Shown: positions 563 to 46,737 of the stretch, one piece after another | How the letters are laid out: every line of letters starts with the position of its first letter | Position numbering within the stretch: position 1 is the stretch's first letter | The notes under the pieces: model-generated | What the model was told of the DNA's origin: nothing | Seen by the model: the letters and a program-made list of their open reading frames with translations, nothing else | The model's database searches: none | Source of the DNA: Archangium sp. | GTDB taxonomy: Bacteria > Myxococcota > Myxococcia > Myxococcales > Myxococcaceae | Direction: 5' to 3' | Assembly (NCBI GenBank): GCA_031412555.1 | Contig: JANODF010000069.1 | Location: 1,608-65,607 of the forward strand | DNA: 64,000 nt | Program-made: the position numbers and the translations under genes

Positions 563-2779
563 GTGCTTTCGCCCCTTCGTCTTTCATCCGTCGTCATCGC
601 AATCTTCCTCTCGAGCTGCGAGTGCACGAACGTCGGCCACATCGGCGGCAAGGTCGATGGCGGCGCTGACGGCGGCGCGAACTCGGGCGGAGGCACCGGC
701 ACTGGAGGTGGTGGCGGCGGGGGCGGCACCATCAGCGCTGGCCCGTTGACCATCAGCCCGCGCGATCAGGTCATCGACGTGTCGCCGGGGCAGCCGTTGC
801 CCACGGTGCAGTTCTCCGCCACGGCGCACGGCGCGAGCGTCACGCCCACCTGGGCTGCCTCTGCGTTGGGCAGCGTCAGCCCCAGCGGGCTCTTCGTTCC
901 CACCGGTTCTGCGGGGGGCATCTCCACCATCACCGCCAACGCAGCAGGTGAGCAGGACAGCACCACGGTGACCGTGCGGCTGCGGTTGGTACAGAACGGT
1001 GCGACCGATGCCGGAGCGATGGACGCTGGTTTCGGTGGCGTGGGCGGCGTGGGAGGCGAAGGCGTGGGTGGCCCGGTGACGCCGGCGATCCTCACCGTGC
1101 TCCAGTCGACACCGACCGCCGACGCCTCGTTGGGCCTGCTCTATCCGTACGATGAGACCGTCTGGCCGCGCGGCATTCTCGCGCCCCTGCTGCAGTGGAA
1201 TGCGGGGGCCCGTTCGTTCGACGCGGTGGGCATTCACCTCGAGTGCGCCCACTTCACCTGGGATGGCGCGTTCGCGAAGACCGCGACGCCCTTCATTCAC
1301 CACCCGGTTCCGCAAGACGTGTGGAAACAGTTGGGCGACTCGTGCGCGGGAGCGACCGTGCAGGTGCGCCTGGTGTTCGCGGCCGGCGGCGTGGCGTACG
1401 GACCGTTGACGCAGAGCTGGCGAATCGCGCCGGGCTTCCTGAAGGGCGTCGTCTATTACAACTCGTACGGCAGCAAGCTCGCGCTCAACCACCCCGGCGC
1501 GTTGCCGAACAACGCGATGTTCGGGGGAGCGACGCTGGCGATTCGGGGCGACTCGACCGACCCGGTGCTGGTCGCCGGCAAGACGGGCCCGACGAATGAC
1601 TGCCGGGTGTGCCACGTGGTTTCGGCCAACGGCTCCACGTTGCTCTCGCAGCAGGGCGACAACAACTCGGCCACCTCGGCCTACGCGCTTCGTTCGGCCA
1701 ACGCCGAGACGCCGATGTCGCCGGGTGATGGCCGCTTCGCCTGGGGTGGCCTCTCGCCCGACGGCACGTTCCTCTTTTCCAACTCGGCGCCGCTGCAGGG
1801 TTCGTCGCTTTCGCCCAGTGCGCTCTACCAGGTGCCCAGTGGCACGGAGATCCCCACCACGGGTCTGGCTGCGGGTCTGCAGGCAGGGACGCCGGTGTTC
1901 TCGCCCGACGGCCGCTCGCTCGCCTTCAACTGGTACGGAGGGCCGGGCAGTGATCGACGCTCGTTGGCCTTCACGCGTTTCACGCCGCCCGGTGCGTTCA
2001 CCGACTTCGTCACCCTGCACACGCCGCCCGCGGGGCACGTCGATCTCTACCCGAGCTTCCTGCCCACGGGCTCGGGCGTGGTCTTTCAGGTGGAGACGCA
2101 GAGCAGTGGCCGCAACTTTGCCGAGACGCGCTCGACCTGCGACGCCTCCGGTCCGTGCTCCGACGTGGGGGCGCACGGAGAGTTGTGGTGGGTCGACGTC
2201 GCCAGCAAGCAGGCGCACGCGCTGACGAAGTTGAACGGAGTGGGTCTGCCCACCGGGCCCAACGCGCACGATGCCGACGCGACGCTCAACTACGAGCCAA
2301 CGGTCAGCCCGATTCCTTCAGGTGGCTACGCGTGGGTGATCTTCACCAGCCGCCGCCTCTACGGAAACGTGGCCACCCTCAATCCGTTCTGGAGCGACCC
2401 GCGGTACCACGATCTCTCGCAGTCACCGACGCCCAAGAAGTTGTGGGTGGCGGCGATCGATCTCAACGCGGCCCCGGGCACGGATCCGAGCCACCCTGCT
2501 TTCTACCTGCCCGCGCAGGAGCTGCTCGCCGGCAACTCGCGGGGCTACTGGTCGCTCGATCCCTGCCGTGCCGATGGTGAGGGGTGTGGTTCAGGCGACC
2601 AATGCTGCGGTGGGTTCTGCCGTGGGCCGAACGACACGGGCAAGACGTGCAGCTCGAACAACGGCGGCGGGTGTTCGGCCGAGTTCGAACGCTGCACCAC
2701 GCACGCCGATTGTTGCGGCGCCGCGACCGCCGGCGCGGTCTGCGTGAATCAGCTCTGCGTGATCCCCGACATCAACTGA
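563..2779 (+). CDS. Secreted multi-domain lipoprotein (Gly-rich linker, Ig-like region, CxxCH motif, PD40/TolB-like propeller repeats, Cys-rich C-terminal module)
   Basis: ORF track, 738 aa. The N-terminus MLSPLRLSSVVIAIFLSSC carries a lipobox, followed by a poly-Gly linker. CRVCH is encoded at nt 1601-1615. LSPDG/FSPDG PD40-like strands recur. The last ~70 aa contain 12 Cys (CGSGDQCCGGFC...CCGAATAGAVCVNQLC). Confidence 0.75.
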   Translation: MLSPLRLSSVVIAIFLSSCECTNVGHIGGKVDGGADGGANSGGGTGTGGGGGGGGTISAGPLTISPRDQVIDVSPGQPLPTVQFSATAHGASVTPTWAASALGSVSPSGLFVPTGSAGGISTITANAAGEQDSTTVTVRLRLVQNGATDAGAMDAGFGGVGGVGGEGVGGPVTPAILTVLQSTPTADASLGLLYPYDETVWPRGILAPLLQWNAGARSFDAVGIHLECAHFTWDGAFAKTATPFIHHPVPQDVWKQLGDSCAGATVQVRLVFAAGGVAYGPLTQSWRIAPGFLKGVVYYNSYGSKLALNHPGALPNNAMFGGATLAIRGDSTDPVLVAGKTGPTNDCRVCHVVSANGSTLLSQQGDNNSATSAYALRSANAETPMSPGDGRFAWGGLSPDGTFLFSNSAPLQGSSLSPSALYQVPSGTEIPTTGLAAGLQAGTPVFSPDGRSLAFNWYGGPGSDRRSLAFTRFTPPGAFTDFVTLHTPPAGHVDLYPSFLPTGSGVVFQVETQSSGRNFAETRSTCDASGPCSDVGAHGELWWVDVASKQAHALTKLNGVGLPTGPNAHDADATLNYEPTVSPIPSGGYAWVIFTSRRLYGNVATLNPFWSDPRYHDLSQSPTPKKLWVAAIDLNAAPGTDPSHPAFYLPAQELLAGNSRGYWSLDPCRADGEGCGSGDQCCGGFCRGPNDTGKTCSSNNGGGCSAEFERCTTHADCCGAATAGAVCVNQLCVIPDIN

Positions 2780-19859: not shown

Positions 19860-20210
19860 ATGAGTGACCCGGCGGACAAGAGACGGCACCCGAGAACACC
19901 GCTCAACGTCCTGGTGCAGTTCCGCTTCGACACGTTCGACGAGTTCCTCGCCGAGTACTCGGTGAACATCTCGCCGGGTGGCATCTTCGTGAAGACCGAC
20001 GAGCCGCGTGAAGAAGGTTCGGTCATCTACCTGCAGTTCGCGCTCAAAGACGGCAGCAAGCTCATCGAAGGCATGGGCAAGGTGGTTCGGGTCAACCCCG
20101 TGGGAGATCCGAAGCGGCCGGCGGGCATGGGCATCGAGTTCATCAACTTCGACGACGAGTCGATGGCGCTCATCGCGGAGATCTGCGCCCAGCGCAGCAC
20201 CAGGAACTGA
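19860..20210 (+). CDS. PilZ-domain protein (myxobacterial single-domain type)
   Basis: KRRHPRTPLNVLVQF...DEFLAEYSVNISPGGIFVKT matches the RxxxR ... D/NxSxxG PilZ signature. Confidence 0.8.
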   Translation: MSDPADKRRHPRTPLNVLVQFRFDTFDEFLAEYSVNISPGGIFVKTDEPREEGSVIYLQFALKDGSKLIEGMGKVVRVNPVGDPKRPAGMGIEFINFDDESMALIAEICAQRSTRN

Positions 20211-20216
20211 CGCGTC

Positions 20217-21671
20217 ATGGGACTGCGCGGCCGACTGCTGCTCGCGTTCCTCATCCCCACCCTGCTCGTGCTCTCGCTCGGGGGCTTCGGGCTGTATCGC
20301 GCCAGCCGCAACGTGCTCGAAGAAGAGCTCGGCCGCGCGCTCTCGGGCATCGCGGCCACCGTGTCGGCAGAGCTCAAGGGCGAACGGGTGCTCTCGGTAG
20401 AAGCGGCCGACGCGCAAGGTGAAGGCAGCCGCACCTGGCGTTCGTTGACCGCGCAGCTGACCGAGGTGAAGCAACGCACCGGCGTGAGGCGGATCCTGGT
20501 GGTCGACGCCGAGCGCCGCGCGCGGCTCGACGTGGGCGGCTCGTTGACGCCCATGACCGAAGCAACGGAGCTCCTGCGTGATGGCCTCGAGATTCAGCGC
20601 GTGCTCGGTGGTGAACTCGCCTCGAGCCAGGTGATGTTCGAAGGCACGGATGGGCGGCTCTACAAGACGGGCTACGCGCCGTTGTTCTCCGACGGCAAGG
20701 TGGTGGGCCTCATCGCCATCGAAGGCAGCGCCGCCTTCTTTGGTCCGCTCACGCGACTGCTCAATGCCTTCGTGGGGCTGGCGGCGTTGACGTTGTTGTT
20801 GCTGGCGATCACCGCGGTCATCTCGGCTCGCGGGCTCTCACGGCCTCTGGAGCGGCTCGTCTCGGCGGCGCTGCGCATCGGCGGGGGCGACTTGTCCACC
20901 CCGGTCGCGAGCGAAGACACGCTGGAGATCGGCATCCTCGCGCGTGAGCTGGAGGCGATGCGTCAGGCGCTGGAGAGCCGCGATCGCCAGCTCAAGCTGA
21001 TGCTCGGCGGCGTGGCGCATGAAGTGAAGAACCCACTCGGGGGGATCGAACTCTTCGCGGGGCTGCTCGACGAAGAGCTCATCGGCAAGGCGCCGGACAT
21101 CGAGGAAGCCCGCTCTCACCTCACCAAAATCCGGCGCGAGCTGAACTACCTGAAGCGCATCGTGGAGGATTTTCTCTCCTTCGCGAAGGAGCAGAAGCTG
21201 CAGGTCGCTCCGCTCGACGCGCAGGCGCTGCTCGAGTCGGCGGCGCAGCACTTGAGTGGTGAAGCAGAAGGCAAGTCGGTCACCCTCGACGTCGAAGCGG
21301 AGAAGGCGACCATCTCAGGTGACGTGAGCCTGCTCACCAGCGCGCTGGTGAACTTGATCAAGAACGCGGTGCAGATCTCCACCGCGGGTCAACGGGTGAC
21401 GCTGCGCGGGAAGACCGACGCGGCGCAGTACACCTTCGAGGTGAAAGACGAAGGGCCCGGTATCGCCAGTGAGCTGCAGGCGCGCATCTTCGAGCCGTTC
21501 TTCACCACGCGTGAAAAGGGCACGGGGCTGGGTTTGCCTCTCGCGCGCAAACTCGTCGAAGCGCACGGCGGCACGCTGACCATCGACTCGAAGCCGGGAC
21601 AGACGCTCTTCCGCCTGCGTCTCCCTCTCCCTGCGAAGCGGGGAGAGGGTCGGGGTGAGGGGCTTACTTAA
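20217..21671 (+). CDS. Sensor histidine kinase (periplasmic sensor, HAMP, HisKA, HATPase_c)
   Basis: Two TM segments are followed by a HAMP-like region. The H-box is GGVAHEVKNPLGGI, the N-box LIKNAVQ, and the G-boxes DEGPGI and GTGLGL. The last ~16 codons run through a REP-like element. Confidence 0.85.
   Translation: MGLRGRLLLAFLIPTLLVLSLGGFGLYRASRNVLEEELGRALSGIAATVSAELKGERVLSVEAADAQGEGSRTWRSLTAQLTEVKQRTGVRRILVVDAERRARLDVGGSLTPMTEATELLRDGLEIQRVLGGELASSQVMFEGTDGRLYKTGYAPLFSDGKVVGLIAIEGSAAFFGPLTRLLNAFVGLAALTLLLLAITAVISARGLSRPLERLVSAALRIGGGDLSTPVASEDTLEIGILARELEAMRQALESRDRQLKLMLGGVAHEVKNPLGGIELFAGLLDEELIGKAPDIEEARSHLTKIRRELNYLKRIVEDFLSFAKEQKLQVAPLDAQALLESAAQHLSGEAEGKSVTLDVEAEKATISGDVSLLTSALVNLIKNAVQISTAGQRVTLRGKTDAAQYTFEVKDEGPGIASELQARIFEPFFTTREKGTGLGLPLARKLVEAHGGTLTIDSKPGQTLFRLRLPLPAKRGEGRGEGLT
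21621..21662 (-). repeat. REP-like GC-rich palindromic element, copy 1
   Basis: ctccctctccc-tgcgaagc-ggggagaggg forms the stem-loop, followed by tcggggtgagggg. The reverse complement fits the family consensus CCCTCACCCyGACCCTCTCCC-loop-GGGAGAGGG. It lies between convergent genes and is read through by the HK ORF tail. Confidence 0.8.
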
Positions 21672-22563
21672 AAGTCCAGTGCCACGGCTCACCGCGCACG
21701 TCATTCACGAACCCGTAGTTGCGCGCGTTGTTCTGCAGCCACCGGTAGGTCGAACTGCCGTAGCCACCGGGCACGCTCAAGTCGGCCGAAGTGCCGCCCT
21801 GGTGATTCGAGTACCCCGGGCGCGCCGCGAGGTTTCCGCGGCCCTGGAGGTACAGATTGTAGAGGTGCTGCTGCTCGGCCATCGTGCGGAAGCCCGAGAC
21901 CACCGAGAGGTTGATGCCCGCGCGCGCTGCAGCGGCCTTCATGCGGTTGAACGCGTTGGCCGCGTCAGTGCGCATGAACTTGCCGTTGCCCACGCTGGAG
22001 ACGGTGATGCTGCGCGCCTGGCCGTTGACGTAGCCGTTGACGCGCGCGCCGCCGGTCGCGGGAGGCGGGTTGTTCACCGCGCCGCCGTTGAGCTTCGCCC
22101 AGGTCGCAGGGCCGACCACGCCGTCGACGCCCAGACCCTTCGCGCGCTGGAAAGAGCGAACCGCGTCGGCCGTGCGCGGGCCGAAATCACCGTCGACCGA
22201 GACGTTGTAGCCGTGCGCGCGCAGGCGGTTCTGCAGGTTGTTGACGGCCGCCCCACGAGCGCCGAGGCGCAGCGTGGGCGTCGCACCACCCGAGGAGGGA
22301 GGCGCCGGGTTCGCCGCGTTCAGCTTCGCCCAGGTGTTCGGCCCGACCACGCCGTCGACCCCGAGCCCACGCGACTGCTGAAACGCGCGCACAGCGGCGG
22401 TCGTGCGCGGGCCGAAGTCACCATCGACGGTGACGTTGAAGCCCTTGGCCTTCAGCTTCTGCTGCAGCTGAGTGACCGCAGCGCCCCGTGAGCCCTGGCG
22501 CAGCGTCGGAGTGGAAGTGAGAGAACGGGTCTGCGTGCTGCGGACTGCGCTGATCGCCGGCAT
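21664..22563 (-). CDS. Peptidoglycan-binding (3 x PG_binding_1) D-alanyl-D-alanine carboxypeptidase, peptidase M15 (VanY-like)
   Basis: Three repeats of the type LRQGSRGAAVTQLQQKLKAKGFNVTVDGDFGPRTTAAVRAFQ are present. The C-terminal motifs are SGFRT, SNHQGGTSADL and GEPWHW. Confidence 0.85.
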   Translation of the reverse strand: MPAISAVRSTQTRSLTSTPTLRQGSRGAAVTQLQQKLKAKGFNVTVDGDFGPRTTAAVRAFQQSRGLGVDGVVGPNTWAKLNAANPAPPSSGGATPTLRLGARGAAVNNLQNRLRAHGYNVSVDGDFGPRTADAVRSFQRAKGLGVDGVVGPATWAKLNGGAVNNPPPATGGARVNGYVNGQARSITVSSVGNGKFMRTDAANAFNRMKAAAARAGINLSVVSGFRTMAEQQHLYNLYLQGRGNLAARPGYSNHQGGTSADLSVPGGYGSSTYRWLQNNARNYGFVNDVRGEPWHWTFK

Positions 22564-22678: not shown

Positions 22679-23917
22679 TCAATTGATCTCCGGGATTCCC
22701 GCATCCGAGGGCCACTCGAAGCCGCCGTCGCTCGTCTCGATGATGCCCGCGTCGAGCCCGCCACCGGGGCCGCGTTCGGTCAACGAATCATCGGGGCAGC
22801 CGTAGATGATCGACACGCGCGCCCCGGGGCGCTCGCTGACGATGTCGCAGGCGGGGCCGTAGAGCGTCACCCGGTTGCCGGCGGCCTGGTAGTCCCAGCC
22901 CGACACGCGCGCGGGATCTCGCGGAAAGAACTGCCCGTCGACGGCCACGTACAACTTGCCCGGGTTGGGCGGCGTGGAGGTCAGCGTGAAGTCGCAGCTC
23001 GCCGCACCCGAAGCGATGGCGGAGAGCGCCGCTTCGAGGTCGACCGGGTTGTCGGCCTGGAAGTAGCGCGGCGTGGTGGCGCGCGCGGTGCCGCCGCGAA
23101 TCGCCATCTGGGTGAGCCGCAGCTCGTCGACGTCACTGCCGAAGCCCACGCTGTACGTGCGCACGCCGCGGGAGAAGAGGCCTTCGACTTCAGCCACCGG
23201 CGCGCCGCCACAATTCTCCATGCCGTCGGTGATCAACAGCACGTAGTTGGCGCGCGTGGTGTCGGTCAGCTCACCCGAGGTCGCCGCCACGTGAAGCGCG
23301 CCGCCGATGGGCGTGGAGTTGCCCTGCGCCTGCGCCGGCAACGCAGTGGAGATCGCGCTCGAGGTCGAGACGCCGACCGGCACGTTGATCCGCCCGGGGT
23401 TGCACTGCGAGCTCTGCAAGGAGAACAGCTGCAGCCCGAAACGCAGCTTGTCGTTGCCGGCGTTCCGCGCGGTGACGTTGCGCACCGCGGTGGTGGCGGT
23501 CTCCCACTTGGAGCGGGTGTTGGCGATCACCTCCTGCATCGAGCACGAGTGATCGAGCACGATGAGAATGTTCGCTTCGGTCGCCGTCGCTTCGAACTTC
23601 TGCCCGCCGCAGCTCACCGGGCCCGCATCGGCTTGCGTGCTGCCGCTGCCTGTCATGCAGGTGCCACCCGGCGCGCAGATCTGCCCGGCCGCGCAATCGG
23701 CCGACACCGAACAACCGGTCGCGGCGCTGACACACACCCCACGCGAATTGCAGCTCTGGCCTCCCCCGCACTGCGCCACGGTCTGGCAGGCGGTCAGGCA
23801 GATGCCCGACGGCACGCAGACCTGCCCCGAGCCACATGGCGTGTTCTCAGTGCAGCGCGGCGGGCTGCAAGCAGAGAGCAGAGCGCCGACGGACAGACAC
23901 AGCAGGAGCGCGCGCAT
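22679..23917 (-). CDS. Secreted Cys-rich von Willebrand factor A (vWA) lipoprotein
   Basis: Lies in the frame of ORF 22679..24160. ATG at 23917 gives MRALLLCLSVGALLSAC (lipobox). Three GxxC/CxxGxC-type Cys modules follow, then a vWA domain with MIDAS DHSCS (NILIVLDHSCSM) and LLITDGMENCGG. Confidence 0.8.
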   Translation of the reverse strand: MRALLLCLSVGALLSACSPPRCTENTPCGSGQVCVPSGICLTACQTVAQCGGGQSCNSRGVCVSAATGCSVSADCAAGQICAPGGTCMTGSGSTQADAGPVSCGGQKFEATATEANILIVLDHSCSMQEVIANTRSKWETATTAVRNVTARNAGNDKLRFGLQLFSLQSSQCNPGRINVPVGVSTSSAISTALPAQAQGNSTPIGGALHVAATSGELTDTTRANYVLLITDGMENCGGAPVAEVEGLFSRGVRTYSVGFGSDVDELRLTQMAIRGGTARATTPRYFQADNPVDLEAALSAIASGAASCDFTLTSTPPNPGKLYVAVDGQFFPRDPARVSGWDYQAAGNRVTLYGPACDIVSERPGARVSIIYGCPDDSLTERGPGGGLDAGIIETSDGGFEWPSDAGIPEIN

Positions 23918-23925
23918 GGAGGAGC

Positions 23926-24624
23926 TCAAAGCTGGGTGGCCATCGCGAAAGCGACGACGAAGAAGGCACACGCCGCAGCAGCCCATGCATCGAAGCGCAG
24001 CGGACCCGGGGCGCTGGCTTCTTCGACTTCCTCTTCGTCTTCTTCCTCGTCGACCTCCGGCACGACCACGAAGCTCGGCTTGCGCAGCACCGGCACCGGC
24101 GCGAGGGAGGACCAACGGAGGATCGAAGCGCGCGACGGCTCGAGCTCGAGCGACTCGCACACGTCGGCGAGCATGCCTTCGATGACGCGCAGGGAGTGCG
24201 GGCGGCGTGCCGGATCGCGATCGAGCATCAACGAGAGCAGCCCTTCGATGGTCTCGTCGACGCCCGGGTTGATGCGCGAAGCCGGAGGCGCGTCGTGCAG
24301 CGGCGAGACGGCCAGGCGCGCGCGGGCCTGGTTGGGCGTGAGGCCGGTGAACAATTGGTAGAGCACCGCGCCCACCGCGAAGGTGTCGGTGGCGGGATCA
24401 GCGCCTTCGAGGGCGGGCGCGGTGATGGCGATCGAACCATCGCGATCGACGACGAGATCCGCCGGAGAGAGCCGGCCGAAGGTGCGGCGCTGCTGGTGCG
24501 CGGTGGCGACCGCTTCGACGATCTCCACCGAGAGTGAGAGCGCGAGGTCGAGCGGCAAGCGCTCCGCAGTGAGCCGGGAAGCCAGCGTGGTCGAGACGGT
24601 CTGCGAAACGAATCGTCGGTTCAT
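23926..24624 (-). CDS. Truncated kinase-like protein (C-lobe-only pseudokinase) with acidic linker and C-terminal TM anchor
   Basis: Lies in the frame of ORF 23926..24957. ATG at 24624 is chosen because the upstream part is a REP-like element and overlaps ung. There is no Gly-loop or VAIK Lys. The HRDLKPxN position reads FGRLSPAD and the DFG position reads ITA. The C-lobe pattern DTFAVGAVLYQLFTG...LLSLMLDRDPARRP is kept. EVDEEEDEEEVEE and the TM segment AAAACAFFVVAFAMA follow. Confidence 0.65.
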   Translation of the reverse strand: MNRRFVSQTVSTTLASRLTAERLPLDLALSLSVEIVEAVATAHQQRRTFGRLSPADLVVDRDGSIAITAPALEGADPATDTFAVGAVLYQLFTGLTPNQARARLAVSPLHDAPPASRINPGVDETIEGLLSLMLDRDPARRPHSLRVIEGMLADVCESLELEPSRASILRWSSLAPVPVLRKPSFVVVPEVDEEEDEEEVEEASAPGPLRFDAWAAAACAFFVVAFAMATQL

Positions 24625-24729: not shown

Positions 24730-24774
24730 CCCCTCTCCCTTCGGGCCCTTCGGGAGAGGGTCAGCGTGAGGGCG
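24730..24774 (-). repeat. REP-like element, copy 2
   Basis: cccctctccc-ttcgggcccttc-gggagaggg-tcagcgtgagggcg, in the divergent intergenic region between the pseudokinase gene and ung. Confidence 0.75.
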
Positions 24775-24796: not shown

Positions 24797-25465
24797 ATGT
24801 CGCTCCCCGAGCTCGTCCCCCAGGCGTGGAAGGCCCCGTTGTTCGAAGCCACCTCGGCCAGCTCGTTCACCGAGCTGAGCAACTTCCTCGATGAGGAATG
24901 GAACACGCAGGTCGTCTTCCCGCCCAAGCCGCAGGTCTTCGCCGCGCTCGAGCTCACGCCGCCCGAAGCGGTGCGCGTGGTGCTGCTCGGCCAGGACCCC
25001 TACCCGACCGCCGGCAACGCGAACGGCCTCGCCTTCTCCGTCACCAGAGAGGTGAAGATCCCCGCCTCGCTCAAGAACGTCTTCCTCGGTCTGCAAGCGG
25101 ATCTCGGGTTGCCCCTGCCGTCGAACGGAGATCTCACGCCGTGGGCACGACGCGGCGTGCTGCTCCTCAACGCGGTGCTCACGGTGCGGGAGAAGACGCC
25201 GCAATCGCACCAGAAGAAGGGGTGGGAAGCCTTCACCACCGCCGTGCTCCGTCACGTCGCGAGCTCACCGCACAAGGTGGTCTTCCTCTGCTTCGGCAAA
25301 CCCGCGCTCAAGCTGGTCGAGTCGCTCGGTACGCACCACCCCATCGTCGCGGCGCCCCACCCTTCTCCGCTCAACGGGCGCGCGTTCGTCGACGCGGTGA
25401 CGAAGGACAAGCTCTTCACGAAGGTCAACTCGCTGCTCGAGGCGCCGATCGACTGGAGCCTCTGA
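24797..25465 (+). CDS. ung: Uracil-DNA glycosylase, family 1
   Basis: Motifs VVLLGQDPYP, GLAFSV, LLLNAVLTV and HPSPLN are present; length is 222 aa. Confidence 0.9.
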   Translation: MSLPELVPQAWKAPLFEATSASSFTELSNFLDEEWNTQVVFPPKPQVFAALELTPPEAVRVVLLGQDPYPTAGNANGLAFSVTREVKIPASLKNVFLGLQADLGLPLPSNGDLTPWARRGVLLLNAVLTVREKTPQSHQKKGWEAFTTAVLRHVASSPHKVVFLCFGKPALKLVESLGTHHPIVAAPHPSPLNGRAFVDAVTKDKLFTKVNSLLEAPIDWSL

Positions 25466-43901: not shown

Positions 43902-44879
43902 TCACTTTCGCTTGAGTCTGCTGGGCCCGTCGGACACGTCGAGGACCTCGGCCGTCGACTCGAGCTTCAGCTTCGGAGCATCGTCTTTGCCCAGGCTCGC
44001 TGCGTACGGCATCAACGCGCGCGCCACCCGACCGATGCGACGGCCATCGAAGCCACCGTCACGCAGCTGCTTCGCCACGGAATCGAGCGTGTGCAGGCCC
44101 TGCCCCAACGCGAGCAGACCTGCCACGACCACGGTCGTGTCTTCGGGGCTCTCCAGACACACCACGCGATCGCCGAGCAGGTCACGCCACGCACGTTCAC
44201 ACTCCGCCCGGCGTTCGAGATCGGGAATGAGGAAGAACGGCTCGAAGGCGTGCTGCACTTCTTCCACCACCGACGCGAGCGGGAGATCGACCTCGAGATC
44301 TTCACCCAGCCACTGCTTCACCGCCTTGCGCGACACGTGGCTGTACGGCTTCTCGTCGCCGGTGAGGAAGAGGTACCCGCGCTGGCCCCGCTTCCGATGG
44401 CAATCGAGATCGAGGTGACGCGCCGCGAAGTAGAGAGCCAGGTCGTACGACTCGCGGTTGCCGGCACCGCCGCCGCCTTCGAGCCAGGACCAGGTGAGCC
44501 ATTGATCCATCAGCTCTGCGGTCGACTCGAACTGGCCGACCTGGAGCGGCGCGCGATCATCGAACGCATCGCCCACCGCCATGAACAACACCTGGGGATC
44601 CCGAATGCCGAACTCCCCCAGGCGCTTCATCAGCCCCGGGAGATCGTGCCGCGCGAGCCGTTCAGGCACCGCGCCCATCGAGCCGGTGACGTCGAGCGCG
44701 AAGGCGATGGCCAACGACTCCGGGTGTTGCGCGCTGTCGCGGCTCTCACGCAGCCCCACGCCGCGCGGATCCATCAGCGCATGGCAGGCGCGCTGCGCAA
44801 AGAGCTGCTGCGTGGGCTTCGTCGCTCTCTGCGAGGTCAGCGCCGCGTGGGCTTCGTAGCTGTACGCGCCGTACCCCAC
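43902..44879 (-). CDS. Cytoplasmic vWA-domain protein, paralogue B
   Basis: No signal peptide. The N-terminus is MGYGAYSYEAH. MIDAS is FALDVTGSM, followed by QVGQFESTAELMDQWL and YLFLTGDE. It is clearly paralogous (by eye, over most of its length) to the gene immediately upstream. The start lies 1 nt after that gene's stop. Confidence 0.8.
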   Translation of the reverse strand: MGYGAYSYEAHAALTSQRATKPTQQLFAQRACHALMDPRGVGLRESRDSAQHPESLAIAFALDVTGSMGAVPERLARHDLPGLMKRLGEFGIRDPQVLFMAVGDAFDDRAPLQVGQFESTAELMDQWLTWSWLEGGGGAGNRESYDLALYFAARHLDLDCHRKRGQRGYLFLTGDEKPYSHVSRKAVKQWLGEDLEVDLPLASVVEEVQHAFEPFFLIPDLERRAECERAWRDLLGDRVVCLESPEDTTVVVAGLLALGQGLHTLDSVAKQLRDGGFDGRRIGRVARALMPYAASLGKDDAPKLKLESTAEVLDVSDGPSRLKRK

Positions 44880-44880
44880 G

Positions 44881-45762
44881 TCACGCCTTCCCGTTGGCCG
44901 TGGCCCAGGGCCGCAGCGCTTCGGTCACCTGCTTCGCGCGCGTGTTGCCCGACTTGGTGAGGCTGGCTTCGAGCTGAGCGAGCCCCGACACGGCGCCTTC
45001 TCCCAGCGCGACGAGGCCGGCCGCAGCTGCGCAGGTGTCTGCGGGATCATCGAGCACGATGAACGACTCTTTGAGGTACGGGGTCCAGAAGGCCGAGACA
45101 CTCGCACCACGCTTGCGATCGGGCGCGATGAAGAACGGGTGGAACGTGCGCCGCACATCGGTGATGACCGCGTCGAGCGCCATGTCTTGCACGTCGGTAC
45201 CGATCCACTTCTTCACCAGCGCACCGGCGAGCGTGGTGTTGGAGGGCTCGTCGCCCGTCATGAACAGGTAGCCCTTGCGCTGACGCTTCTCCCAGCAGTC
45301 CATCGCGACGTGGCGCGCGAAGAAGTGGAACGCCAACTCGTAGAGTTCGTCGCCGCCGCCTTTGAGCGAACACTTGGTGAGCCAGCGATCCATCAGCTCG
45401 GCGGTGGTCTCGAACTGGCCGACCTGCAACGGCCGTCCATCGCCCGTCACGTCGGTCAGCGCAGCGAAGAGCACCTGCGGGCTCGCCACCTTCGCGTCGG
45501 TGAGCAGCTTCATGAAGCCAGGCAGTTGCTTGGTGGCGATGTCGACGGGAATGCTGGCCATCGAGCCGCTGATGTCGAGGGCGAAGACGATGCCCAGGGA
45601 GTCGGGGTTGTCCTTGCTGTCGCGCGACTCGCGGTACTTCACGCCCTTCGGATCCATCTTCGGATCGACGACGGTCCCCTTGAAGACCGCGGCGGCCGAC
45701 TGGCCCGCGCGGCTGGTGGTGATCGCCTGATGCGCTTCGTAGCTGTACGACCCGTAACCCAT
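44881..45762 (-). CDS. Cytoplasmic vWA-domain protein, paralogue A
   Basis: No signal peptide. The N-terminus is MGYGSYSYEAH. MIDAS is FALDISGSM, followed by QVGQFETTAELMDRWL and YLFMTGDE. It lies 24 nt downstream of the pseudokinase gene. Confidence 0.8.
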   Translation of the reverse strand: MGYGSYSYEAHQAITTSRAGQSAAAVFKGTVVDPKMDPKGVKYRESRDSKDNPDSLGIVFALDISGSMASIPVDIATKQLPGFMKLLTDAKVASPQVLFAALTDVTGDGRPLQVGQFETTAELMDRWLTKCSLKGGGDELYELAFHFFARHVAMDCWEKRQRKGYLFMTGDEPSNTTLAGALVKKWIGTDVQDMALDAVITDVRRTFHPFFIAPDRKRGASVSAFWTPYLKESFIVLDDPADTCAAAAGLVALGEGAVSGLAQLEASLTKSGNTRAKQVTEALRPWATANGKA

Positions 45763-45786
45763 GGGAAAGCTCCTTGCGGTGCGGCG

Positions 45787-46737
45787 TTAGTTCCAACCAG
45801 GCATCGAAAACGGCACGTACTTCGGCGGGCCGAACACTTCGCGGGCCACACGATCGACTTCAGCGATGAGCGCCCACCCGTCGGAGAAGCTCGCGGCGCG
45901 ATCCAGCAGGTGCTGCAGCGGTTCGGGCACCGAGGGGCCGAGGAGCGCCTGCACCGCGCGCGCACTCATGGAGAAGTCGAGCGCGGGCTGCGCCTCCACG
46001 CCCGGCGAGAGGCCACCCGCGGTCACCTTCACCTGTTCGCCGATGCGGGTCGCGCAAGAGAAGCCGATCAACCGCACACCGTGATCACGCGCGTGCACCA
46101 GCAGGTGCTCCGGCAACACCGCGGCGTGCACCCAGCCTGCGCCATGCAGCCACGCCAACGACTCGAGCACGCGTTTCCACAACCAGATCGACGCGCCCGC
46201 GGGAACTCCACCCGGGTACTCCGCGCGCACGTCATCGAAGGTGTGCACGAAGCCCGACGCGAGCCCGAGCACCATCACCTGGCGCGTGCCTTCGGTGCCG
46301 TGAATACCGAGGCGTGCTTCTCCGAACGCGACCGGCGAGGGCATCAAGCGGGAAAAATGCGCAGTGCCGTCACGGGTGGCGCGCTGGAGCGCAGAGAGCA
46401 CCTCCCACTCGCTGCGGAAGACGTCGAGATCGCCAGCCGCGCGCAGCATCTTCACCACCACCTGCTCCGAGAGGCGGTGATCGAAGCGGCCGAGAAACAC
46501 GTCGCTCGAGCTGCCCTTCGCCACCCGCCCGTCGAGGATGTAGCGGCGGCCACCCGCCCACAGCCGCGTCCGCCCGGGCTCCGGCAGATCGATCTCCGGC
46601 GGTTGCATCAGCCGCACGCCACCGGCCGTGGGCACGAGCGCGACGCCGCAGTAGTCGCAATGCATCACACCCGTCGGTGCCAGCTTCGGCAGCGGCGCAT
46701 TGCACTGCGGGCAGGTGACGAGCGTGTAGGTGACCAT
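45787..46737 (-). CDS. Zinc-ribbon + protein-kinase-like protein lacking both catalytic Asp residues (predicted pseudokinase)
   Basis: The N-terminus CPQCNAPLP...HCDYCG is a 4-Cys ribbon. The kinase-like core keeps the Gly-rich loop remnant AKGSSSDVF, the Lys (VVVKML) and the Glu (EWEVLSAL). The HRDLKPxN position reads HAAVLPEH and the DFG position reads GFS. Confidence 0.75.
   Translation of the reverse strand: MVTYTLVTCPQCNAPLPKLAPTGVMHCDYCGVALVPTAGGVRLMQPPEIDLPEPGRTRLWAGGRRYILDGRVAKGSSSDVFLGRFDHRLSEQVVVKMLRAAGDLDVFRSEWEVLSALQRATRDGTAHFSRLMPSPVAFGEARLGIHGTEGTRQVMVLGLASGFVHTFDDVRAEYPGGVPAGASIWLWKRVLESLAWLHGAGWVHAAVLPEHLLVHARDHGVRLIGFSCATRIGEQVKVTAGGLSPGVEAQPALDFSMSARAVQALLGPSVPEPLQHLLDRAASFSDGWALIAEVDRVAREVFGPPKYVPFSMPGWN

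Follow-up and report, generated by a model that had tools for sequence, protein, structure and literature searches.

A conserved kinase C-lobe protein, catalytically dead and with a membrane anchor at its C-terminus, and its facultative lipoprotein neighbour in Archangium

Can the C-lobe of a protein kinase, stripped of everything that catalysis requires, persist as a protein in its own right, and is it bound in function to the adhesin-like lipoprotein encoded directly behind it? Both questions are raised by two neighbouring genes in a 64,000-nt stretch of Archangium sp. (assembly GCA_031412555.1, contig JANODF010000069.1, positions 1,608 to 65,607 of the forward strand), which is called the window here and whose own numbering is used throughout. 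The first gene, at 23926-24624 on the minus strand, is referred to together with its product as KL, the half-kinase; the product, of 232 residues, is a kinase C-lobe protein that lacks the N-lobe, is catalytically dead and ends in a transmembrane (TM) anchor, and the TGA stop codon lies at 23926-23928. The second gene, at 22679-23917 on the same strand, follows after a spacer of 8 nt (23918-23925) and encodes P0002, a 412-residue Cys-rich lipoprotein with a von Willebrand factor A (vWA) domain that is distantly paralogous to CglB, an adhesin of gliding motility. A prediction made from the letters of the window (the original prediction) had described the two genes as a cytoplasmic dead-kinase scaffold paired with an extracytoplasmic vWA protein. 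The coordinates and the 8-nt spacing of the two minus-strand genes were correct, and the upstream gene was rightly recognized, although its product has 232 rather than 233 residues, the stop codon having been counted.

KL contains one half of a kinase fold. The Pfam Pkinase model (PF00069) matched it only over profile positions 174-254 of 263 (E 0.0045; 16.8 bits against a cut-off of 31.7), the NCBIfam PknB model over profile positions 185-279 (E 1.3e-9), and a KL family profile built from 29 members found protein kinases only among its 40 matches to PDB sequences at E <= 0.01. In the alignment to Stk1, the profile covered residues 96-273, that is, from the hinge/αD-αE region to the end of the domain, with a gap of 29 residues at the expected activation segment. 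KL starts about 10 residues before the αE-equivalent helix and then runs through αE, a degenerate catalytic loop, an ITA triplet, the site of the deleted activation segment, αF to αI and one extra helix specific to the family; its sequence contains ...TFGRLSPADLVV..., ...IAITAPA..., DTFAVGAVLYQLFTG, MLDRDPARRPHS and EVDEEEDEEEVEE, and its C-terminal end reads WAAAACAFFVVAFAMATQL. In the same alignment, HRD is replaced by FGR, the Lys and Asn of the catalytic loop by Ser and Asp (FGRLSPAD) and DFG by ITA, and neither HRDxKxxN nor DFG occurs in any aligned member of the KL family. An AlphaFold2 (AF2) model computed from the family alignment had a mean predicted local distance difference test (pLDDT) score of 85.7, exceeding 94 for residues 11-170. 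When this model was searched with Foldseek, more than 1,000 kinase structures were matched at E <= 0.001, the 50 best being kinase domains only, and the best match was Mycobacterium tuberculosis PknB (E 9e-7, about 170 aligned columns, root-mean-square deviation 3.6 Å). By AF2, Foldseek, profile alignment and substitution rates, the domain is placed at approximately residues 10-175 (24100-24597, minus strand).

KL therefore has no bilobal fold, as the N-lobe with its Gly-rich loop, VAIK Lys and αC Glu is missing. Because the Gly loop, the VAIK Lys, αC, the catalytic Asp and DFG are all absent, nucleotide binding and catalysis are, judged from the residues present and from established kinase biochemistry, excluded. 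An active Hanks-type Ser/Thr kinase was rejected as an assignment on the missing N-lobe and on FGRLSPAD and ITA at the catalytic motifs. KL is a pseudokinase in that it has a kinase fold, is under selection and has lost the catalytic residues, albeit an atypical one with only half of the fold; the fold and the loss of the catalytic apparatus can both be regarded as firm. The domain is followed by a linker at approximately residues 176-207 (24004-24099, minus strand), delimited by pLDDT, sequence variability and substitution proportions, which carries the acidic run EVDEEEDEEEVEE, varies in length and sequence among homologues and has pLDDT below 50 over residues 186-204. The protein ends (residues ~208-232; 23929-24003, minus strand) in a juxtamembrane motif, P-L-R-F-D-x-W, and a TM helix that AF2 places at residues 213-231 of 232; a hydropathy scan of KL relatives likewise found one TM segment at the C-terminus. 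KL lacks a signal peptide at its N-terminus, and its only TM segment lies within about 30 residues of the C-terminus; these are the features of a tail-anchored inner-membrane protein. Its soluble domain contains a single Cys. The absent N-lobe, the FGRLSPAD loop, the ITA triplet at the DFG position and the acidic run preceding a C-terminal TM helix had all been part of the original prediction, and each was borne out by the C-lobe-only profile matches, the Stk1 alignment and the AF2 model.

Such a gene invites the suspicion that part of it is missing. However, homologues of KL (n=66) range from 163 to 328 residues, most of them from 227 to 270, at identities down to 41%, and the full-length ones share the start M-x-RRF. 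The in-frame sequence 5' of the start Met is not conserved between loci, and the divergent gene for uracil-DNA glycosylase (UDG; 24797-25465, plus strand) begins only 172 nt away from the start codon. A hidden N-lobe or longer N-terminus was rejected on these three grounds, and a longer, N-lobe-bearing homologue, which the original prediction had named as the finding that would overturn it, was looked for and found in none of the KL homologues examined. KL has no internal stop codons, and pairwise ratios of nonsynonymous to synonymous substitution rates (dN/dS, Nei-Gojobori) lie at 0.16-0.36 when the whole gene is taken and at 0.13-0.34 within the domain. Evolution of the linker is near neutral, with a ratio of nonsynonymous to synonymous proportions (pN/pS) of about 0.2-0.9, and the most constrained part is the TM segment, where pN is 0-0.09 against a pS of 0.2-0.64 in the six closest pairs, with pN reaching 0.17 in more distant pairs. 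Invariant among the homologues are F211, D212 and W214 just before the helix and A225 within it, as well as D80, L88, F92, T93 and A100 in the αF/αG-equivalent region; the stretch T96-P97-x-Q99-A100-R101, which overlaps the αG-equivalent helix that AF2 places at residues 97-104, is nearly invariant. KL is thus not a truncation artefact and is under purifying selection. The M-x-R-R-F start (24613-24624, minus strand) is kept across the tail-anchored subfamily, although the 10-30 residues behind it vary and are disordered; as a signal for twin-arginine translocation (Tat) it is unconvincing.

Relatives outside the immediate orthologues suggest where such a protein came from. In an exhaustive search with the family profile over 1.84 billion representatives, 18 matches were obtained at E <= 1e-30, below which they formed a continuum into ordinary kinases. 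Sixty representatives at 50% identity were inspected, and in about 33 of them no more than about 40 residues precede the C-lobe match. HRDxK is missing from these proteins and DFG from most of them, and in nearly all the domain is followed by one hydrophobic helix. Some members of the family are tail-anchored as KL is and others extend into an extracytoplasmic tail rich in Ala, Pro and Lys, and many keep the APE motif that is deleted in the KL subfamily. A 441-residue relative annotated 'protein kinase [Myxococcales bacterium]' (P0155) keeps the N-lobe (Pfam positions 3-200, 54.9 bits) and is already dead, with HGA for HRD and GFG for DFG, and it has the acidic run and TM segment seen in KL. 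Together these proteins suggest a series of reductions that began with a dead receptor kinase, which lost first its N-lobe and later both its activation segment and its outer tail, a series read from few sequences and no rooted phylogeny. On these comparisons, KL is a stripped-down descendant of receptor-type bacterial Ser/Thr kinases. A 506-residue protein from a Logan contig (P0142) consists of three tandem KL-type C-lobe domains with no C-terminal TM anchor, and the module therefore appears to fold autonomously; P0142 can be described as its soluble, repeated version. All members of the family come from metagenomes or metagenome-assembled genomes (MAGs), under the labels Archangium sp., Myxococcaceae, Myxococcales or Myxococcota. 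Complete genomes sampled from the GTDB family of the window gave only ordinary kinase-level matches, and a phylum-wide search with a broad family alignment showed no separation from ordinary kinases at about 1e-25, only four genomes (G176, G225, G170 and G209) standing out. These N-lobe-less, catalytically dead, single-pass kinase remnants of uncultured Myxococcota are apparently an undescribed and unnamed group.

The second gene was also described correctly in outline by the original prediction, as encoding a lipoprotein with three Cys modules and a vWA domain with a MIDAS, an adhesion site that depends on metal ions. P0002 has the lipobox LLSAC, with Cys17 followed by Ser at +2, and its signal peptide and lipobox are followed by three CX5CX5CX5C modules at residues 18-90 (together 23648-23917, minus strand); all twelve Cys are invariant or nearly so, and the modules match TIGR04201 and DUF7107 weakly and are modelled as β-hairpins at pLDDT 82-93. 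The vWA domain (23018-23608, minus strand) is recognized by PF00092 (E 1.6e-10), and its MIDAS has the complete D-x-S-x-S...T...D pattern, D122-x-S124-x-S126...T202...D231, which is invariant in 29 homologues. The remainder (22682-23017, minus strand) holds a C-terminal β-domain that is common to CglB (residues ~301-385, with strands at 309-372 in the predicted structure), followed by a disordered Gly/Asp tail. Foldseek gave the adhesin vWA domains SpaC, PitA, mussel PTMP1, LapA and CMG2 as best matches. Against the CglB equivalog model NF033757, P0002 scored 41.4 bits, under the cut-off of 200, while the two true CglB genes of the same genome, located on another contig, scored 422 and 396 bits; P0002 was therefore rejected as a CglB orthologue. 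BLASTP with the genome's own CglB gave 26% identity over residues 177-357 (E 3e-15), corresponding to the second half of the vWA domain plus the β-domain. From these sequence and model comparisons, P0002 is a distant CglB paralogue and would be an exported lipoprotein adhesin with metal-dependent ligand binding of the vWA type, probably located in the outer membrane; no TM segment was found in it.

Two further observations concern this protein and its relatives. The true CglB genes lie in tandem (G000:C8:7878-10343, plus strand; L013 and L014), and the gliding adhesin is thus duplicated in the genome of the window. The C-terminus of P0002 reads ...G-(I/V)-P-E-I-N (22682-22702, minus strand) and is conserved in its orthologues, and even paralogues of 40% identity that carry extra Cys modules end in -IN, which is missing from CglB; the ...PEIN terminus may be a sorting or recognition tag.

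How closely the two genes belong together was examined in 40 related genomes, with a vWA orthologue taken as a protein of at least 65% identity within this set and of at least 55% when more distant loci are included. KL orthologues occur in 15 of the 40, all of the same genus, and vWA orthologues in nine, each directly after KL; the remaining six KL-bearing genomes have none, and five of these six, checked directly, have only a long paralogue of 44-45% identity. The genome of the window has a second P0002-like gene of this kind (C709, 44% identity), which has no KL neighbour. Wherever both genes are present, the spacer measures 8-23 nt. Three KL-bearing gene orders occupy one slot between UDG and a convergent pair of genes for a HAMP histidine kinase and a PilZ protein (HK-PilZ): KL-vWA-VanY (order A, that of the window), KL-VanY (order B) and KL alone (order C), the VanY-type gene being found in A and B and not in C. 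Order A extends to MAGs at a greater distance and to a further genus (L024, L026 and L053), where KL is about 32-34% and the vWA protein 55-57% identical. When KL is arranged in a maximum-likelihood tree, order A appears at the base as well as in the crown, and the orders without vWA are scattered over three places or more; on this distribution, the vWA gene is ancestral to the KL orthogroup and was lost at least two to three times with KL retained. Further out, KL is absent beside the distant vWA homologues (47-48% identity), a distant KL subfamily (P0288, P0289 and P0291) has no vWA neighbour and an unrelated 265-residue gene product encoded upstream, and a vWA neighbour is likewise lacking in the wider family of N-lobe-less proteins. 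The vWA gene is hence never seen without KL, yet KL persists without the vWA gene, and the coupling is one-sided rather than that of an obligate pair. The original prediction of a scaffold and adhesin working as a unit is not upheld in this respect: adjacency, which the prediction had made a condition, is conserved in many relatives, so that the prediction is not refuted outright on this count, and fails in the six of 15 genomes that keep KL without its neighbour. Family membership, gene order and the variation of that order are direct observations; because of the conserved spacing of 8-23 nt, co-transcription of the two genes where both are present is almost certain, as far as gene layout can tell.

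The slot itself is variable in other ways. Genomes of the same genus without KL retain UDG, VanY and HK-PilZ, and in the only KL-less locus read (G013, L074) the slot holds a gene for a 198-residue Cys-rich lipoprotein (L074 1673-2269, plus strand) with the motif ...YPDGG(T/S)L(Y/F)R(F/Y)WDGGTC...CPCFSSDDCGPGF...; a lipoprotein of the same type is encoded just upstream of KL in another genome (L007 ~900-1319, plus strand), and the UDG-VanY slot can be regarded as a hot spot for genes of secreted Cys-rich lipoproteins. One MAG has a second KL-vWA-VanY copy (L045; G014:C33:3533-5129), in which the vWA protein is 82-83% identical and the match to KL is confined to its C-terminal 100 residues; partial duplication, truncation of the copy or a bin of mixed strains could account for it.

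What, then, might half a kinase do? In receptor-type bacterial Ser/Thr kinases, the kinase domain is cytoplasmic, and because KL has the same order of domain, linker and TM segment and no signal peptide, its domain is most likely cytoplasmic, with the protein tail-anchored in the inner membrane. This part of the original prediction, a cytoplasmic dead-kinase protein anchored by its C-terminal helix, remains the most probable topology. We assign a probability of about 0.6 to the reading that KL is a functional, non-catalytic, membrane-tethered docking or decoy module resembling the animal KIND domain, with the adhesin as a facultative passenger of its operon. The docking role is suggested by the conservation of the αF-αG face together with the constraint on the TM helix. 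The αF-αG face is the surface that PknB uses for front-to-front contacts and for substrate docking. According to this model, the disordered acidic linker would tie the C-lobe to the conserved TM helix and hold it on the cytoplasmic face of the inner membrane, where the αF-αG face would bind a partner in the cytoplasm, for which an active Ser/Thr kinase and a kinase substrate are plausible candidates; the helix may contact another membrane protein, as its unusual constraint would suggest, and the vWA lipoprotein would be co-transcribed where present, as facultative co-expressed cargo. Within the model, we infer the cytoplasmic orientation, the docking function, the identity of the partner and the co-transcription. 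A precedent has been proposed in IRAK3-IRAK4, in which a pseudokinase inhibits an active kinase through its C-lobe (PMC8141879).

Several points weigh against this reading. The cytoplasmic orientation is drawn from the missing signal peptide and from homology of architecture, and every member of the family comes from uncultured MAGs. As the whole block from UDG to the histidine kinase is syntenic in one narrow, genus-level clade, adjacency is weak evidence of a functional link and weighs little either way, and the tight conserved spacing and the absence of any vWA orthologue that lacks KL beside it would also be compatible with a vWA protein that depends functionally on KL. A bolder form, in which KL is an independently evolved bacterial counterpart of KIND, acts as a membrane-tethered decoy or dock that tunes the trans-activation of active receptor Ser/Thr kinases by engaging their αG/substrate face, and was ancestrally wired by its operon to a CglB-like adhesin, is offered tentatively, and we think it rather unlikely; if true, it would link surface adhesion to cytoplasmic phospho-signalling in uncultured myxobacteria.

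The pairing of the original prediction could also be read as a dedicated trans-envelope system, in which the vWA lipoprotein would need KL for its function or KL would signal from it, for example by integrin-like inside-out coupling of the two by way of a third component in the membrane, which we consider rather improbable. The uniform 8-23-nt spacer, the position of every vWA orthologue (at least 55% identity) directly 3' of KL in nine of nine genomes and in L024, L026 and L053, an association as old as the base of the KL orthogroup and a TM helix more constrained than a plain anchor requires would all be expected of such a system. Yet six of the 15 genomes keep KL after at least two to three independent losses of the vWA orthologue, the long paralogue that they do possess, at 44-45% identity, has no KL neighbour in the genome of the window, and the distant vWA homologues and distant KL relatives are unpaired. 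Moreover, because KL, without a periplasmic part, would leave at most about three residues outside the membrane and P0002 has no TM segment, direct contact between the two proteins is topologically implausible.

Another partner could be sought among the other neighbours, with the TM helix of KL docking on the TM helices of the HAMP histidine kinase, or with KL acting together with PilZ or the VanY-type peptidase. All three gene orders place KL next to the HK-PilZ pair, of which it is the immediate neighbour in order C; however, being convergent, the genes cannot form a single operon, HK-PilZ is present at 72% identity in same-genus genomes without KL, and the region is merely syntenic in the clade, so that we assign this proposal a low probability. 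Export of the KL domain, by contrast, would solve the topological problem, since a periplasmic C-lobe could touch both the vWA lipoprotein and the peptidoglycan-binding peptidase. The twin arginine of M-x-RRF would then serve as a signal of the Tat type, with the C-terminal helix acting as tail anchor; RRF is found at the extreme N-terminus of nearly all KL orthologues, and a folded domain with a C-terminal TM segment is the architecture of known Tat-dependent tail-anchored proteins such as the hydrogenase small subunits. This we nevertheless regard as very unlikely, as neither a hydrophobic h-region nor an AxA site follows the arginines, the next 10-30 residues are rich in Pro, Ser, Gln, Lys and Arg, variable in length and sometimes acidic (P0062 and P0054), homologous receptor kinases and P0155 share the order of domain, linker and TM segment with a cytoplasmic kinase domain, and the soluble domain has just one Cys. 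That KL is a functionless fragment of a Ser/Thr kinase, decaying or mis-called through pseudogenization, an assembly error or a wrong start, is hardly credible: kinase genes are very numerous in Myxococcota (146 first-look candidates in this genome), so that fragments are expected, and the Pfam score of KL lies under the gathering threshold, but against this stand a length and start conserved in more than 60 sequences down to 41% identity, dN/dS of 0.13-0.36 without internal stops, a confident AF2 fold, the lack of space upstream for an N-lobe and an architecture common to the wider family.

The surroundings of the two genes complete the picture of the locus. The VanY-type gene (21664-22563, minus strand), the variable third gene of the block, starts 115 nt beyond the vWA gene on the same strand and encodes 299 residues with two PG_binding_1 domains and a VanY-type (M15) peptidase domain by Pfam. 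This protein keeps the zinc and catalytic motifs (SNHQGGTSAD and EPWHW) and has no recognizable signal peptide or TM segment; its architecture is endolysin-like within a chromosomal syntenic block. The syntenic block is bounded on this side by the convergent genes for PilZ and the HAMP histidine kinase (19860-21671, plus strand), a pair that is context rather than a demonstrated part of the system, and at the other end by UDG. A GC-rich palindromic REP-like element (CCCTCTCCC...GGGAGAGGG) lies at 24730-24774 between KL and UDG, and a second one, at 21621-21662, borders the block at its other end. A scan of the locus for promoters and terminators returned 0 promoter-like sites and one terminator-like site, inside the vWA gene and below shuffle expectation. 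In a PADLOC scan for anti-phage systems, KL matched only generic kinase C-lobe entries (PD-T4-6, mad6 and PglW) and the vWA and VanY proteins matched none; a known anti-phage system was rejected, the KL matches being of this generic kind. The original prediction had further taken 43902-46737 as a second kinase-like plus vWA pairing within the same 64 kb. That locus, which encodes a zinc-ribbon kinase-like protein and two cytoplasmic vWA-like proteins without signal peptides, proved to be unrelated (hhalign probabilities of 0.2% with KL and 8.5% with P0002); as the genome has more than 100 kinase-like genes and both domain classes are broad, the two loci are a coincidence.

Pseudokinases are normally defined as bilobal folds with degraded motifs, and the only well-known module consisting of a C-lobe alone is the KIND domain of animals. 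KIND and KL are alike in that both derive from a kinase C-lobe alone, lack the catalytic residues and can occur in tandem copies, v-KIND having two KIND domains and P0142 three KL-type domains. They differ in setting: KIND is eukaryotic and sits inside large cytosolic multidomain proteins, whereas in bacterial KL a domain of about 170 residues with a TM tail anchor is the whole protein. No specific sequence relationship between them was found with Pfam-A at E <= 1, which should include a KIND model and returned PF00069 only, and Spire, PTPN13 and very-KIND are absent from the 40 PDB matches of KL at E <= 0.01 and from the 50 best of its more than 1,000 fold matches. By these comparisons, KL is a derivation independent of KIND, with bacterial PknB-type kinases as its nearest relatives, and the locus would represent a C-lobe-only reduction that arose independently in bacteria. 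KIND functions as a protein-protein interaction module (PMC2064798, PMC5928657 and PMC11231147).

Among bacterial proteins, PknB/Stk1 and KL have a cytoplasmic kinase-fold domain, a juxtamembrane linker and a single TM segment in like order, and the same holds for the order of parts in the membrane pseudokinases, namely the MviN pseudokinase domain (ActPs3) and EssB/YukC of type VIIb secretion. All of these keep the bilobal fold, whereas KL has no N-lobe, no activation segment and no extracytoplasmic domain. Bacterial pseudokinases in which all three catalytic motifs are degraded are known and have been given a scaffold role, and seven families, ActPs1-3, GLW, CP1, DYD and DLHK, were catalogued in 2025 (PMC12599244). 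None of the seven is described there as N-lobe-less or as coming from Myxococcota, and 'Myxococc', 'truncat' and 'C-lobe' do not occur in the text; the KL family is therefore an addition to that catalogue.

For the neighbouring gene, the system to compare is CglB of Myxococcus gliding, an outer-membrane lipoprotein adhesin with a MIDAS-bearing vWA domain, a β-jellyroll and 17 Cys (PMC9946355). CglB and P0002 are both Cys-rich lipoproteins of about 410 residues that combine a vWA domain with a complete MIDAS and a β-domain. The Cys of P0002 lie in three N-terminal CX5C modules and those of CglB in loops inside the vWA domain, and P0002 ends in the ...PEIN tail, which CglB lacks; the vWA gene would thus stand for a second, new lineage of CglB-like lipoproteins.

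Taken beside these systems, KL stands at the end of a visible graded series of reduction, from a full-length dead receptor kinase through N-lobe-less proteins that keep APE to a tail-anchored, minimal C-lobe without an activation segment. As all members have uncultured sources, their function is approachable only heterologously; for such work, KL offers a compact and probably soluble domain of 170 residues with which to ask what the C-lobe of a kinase can do on its own.

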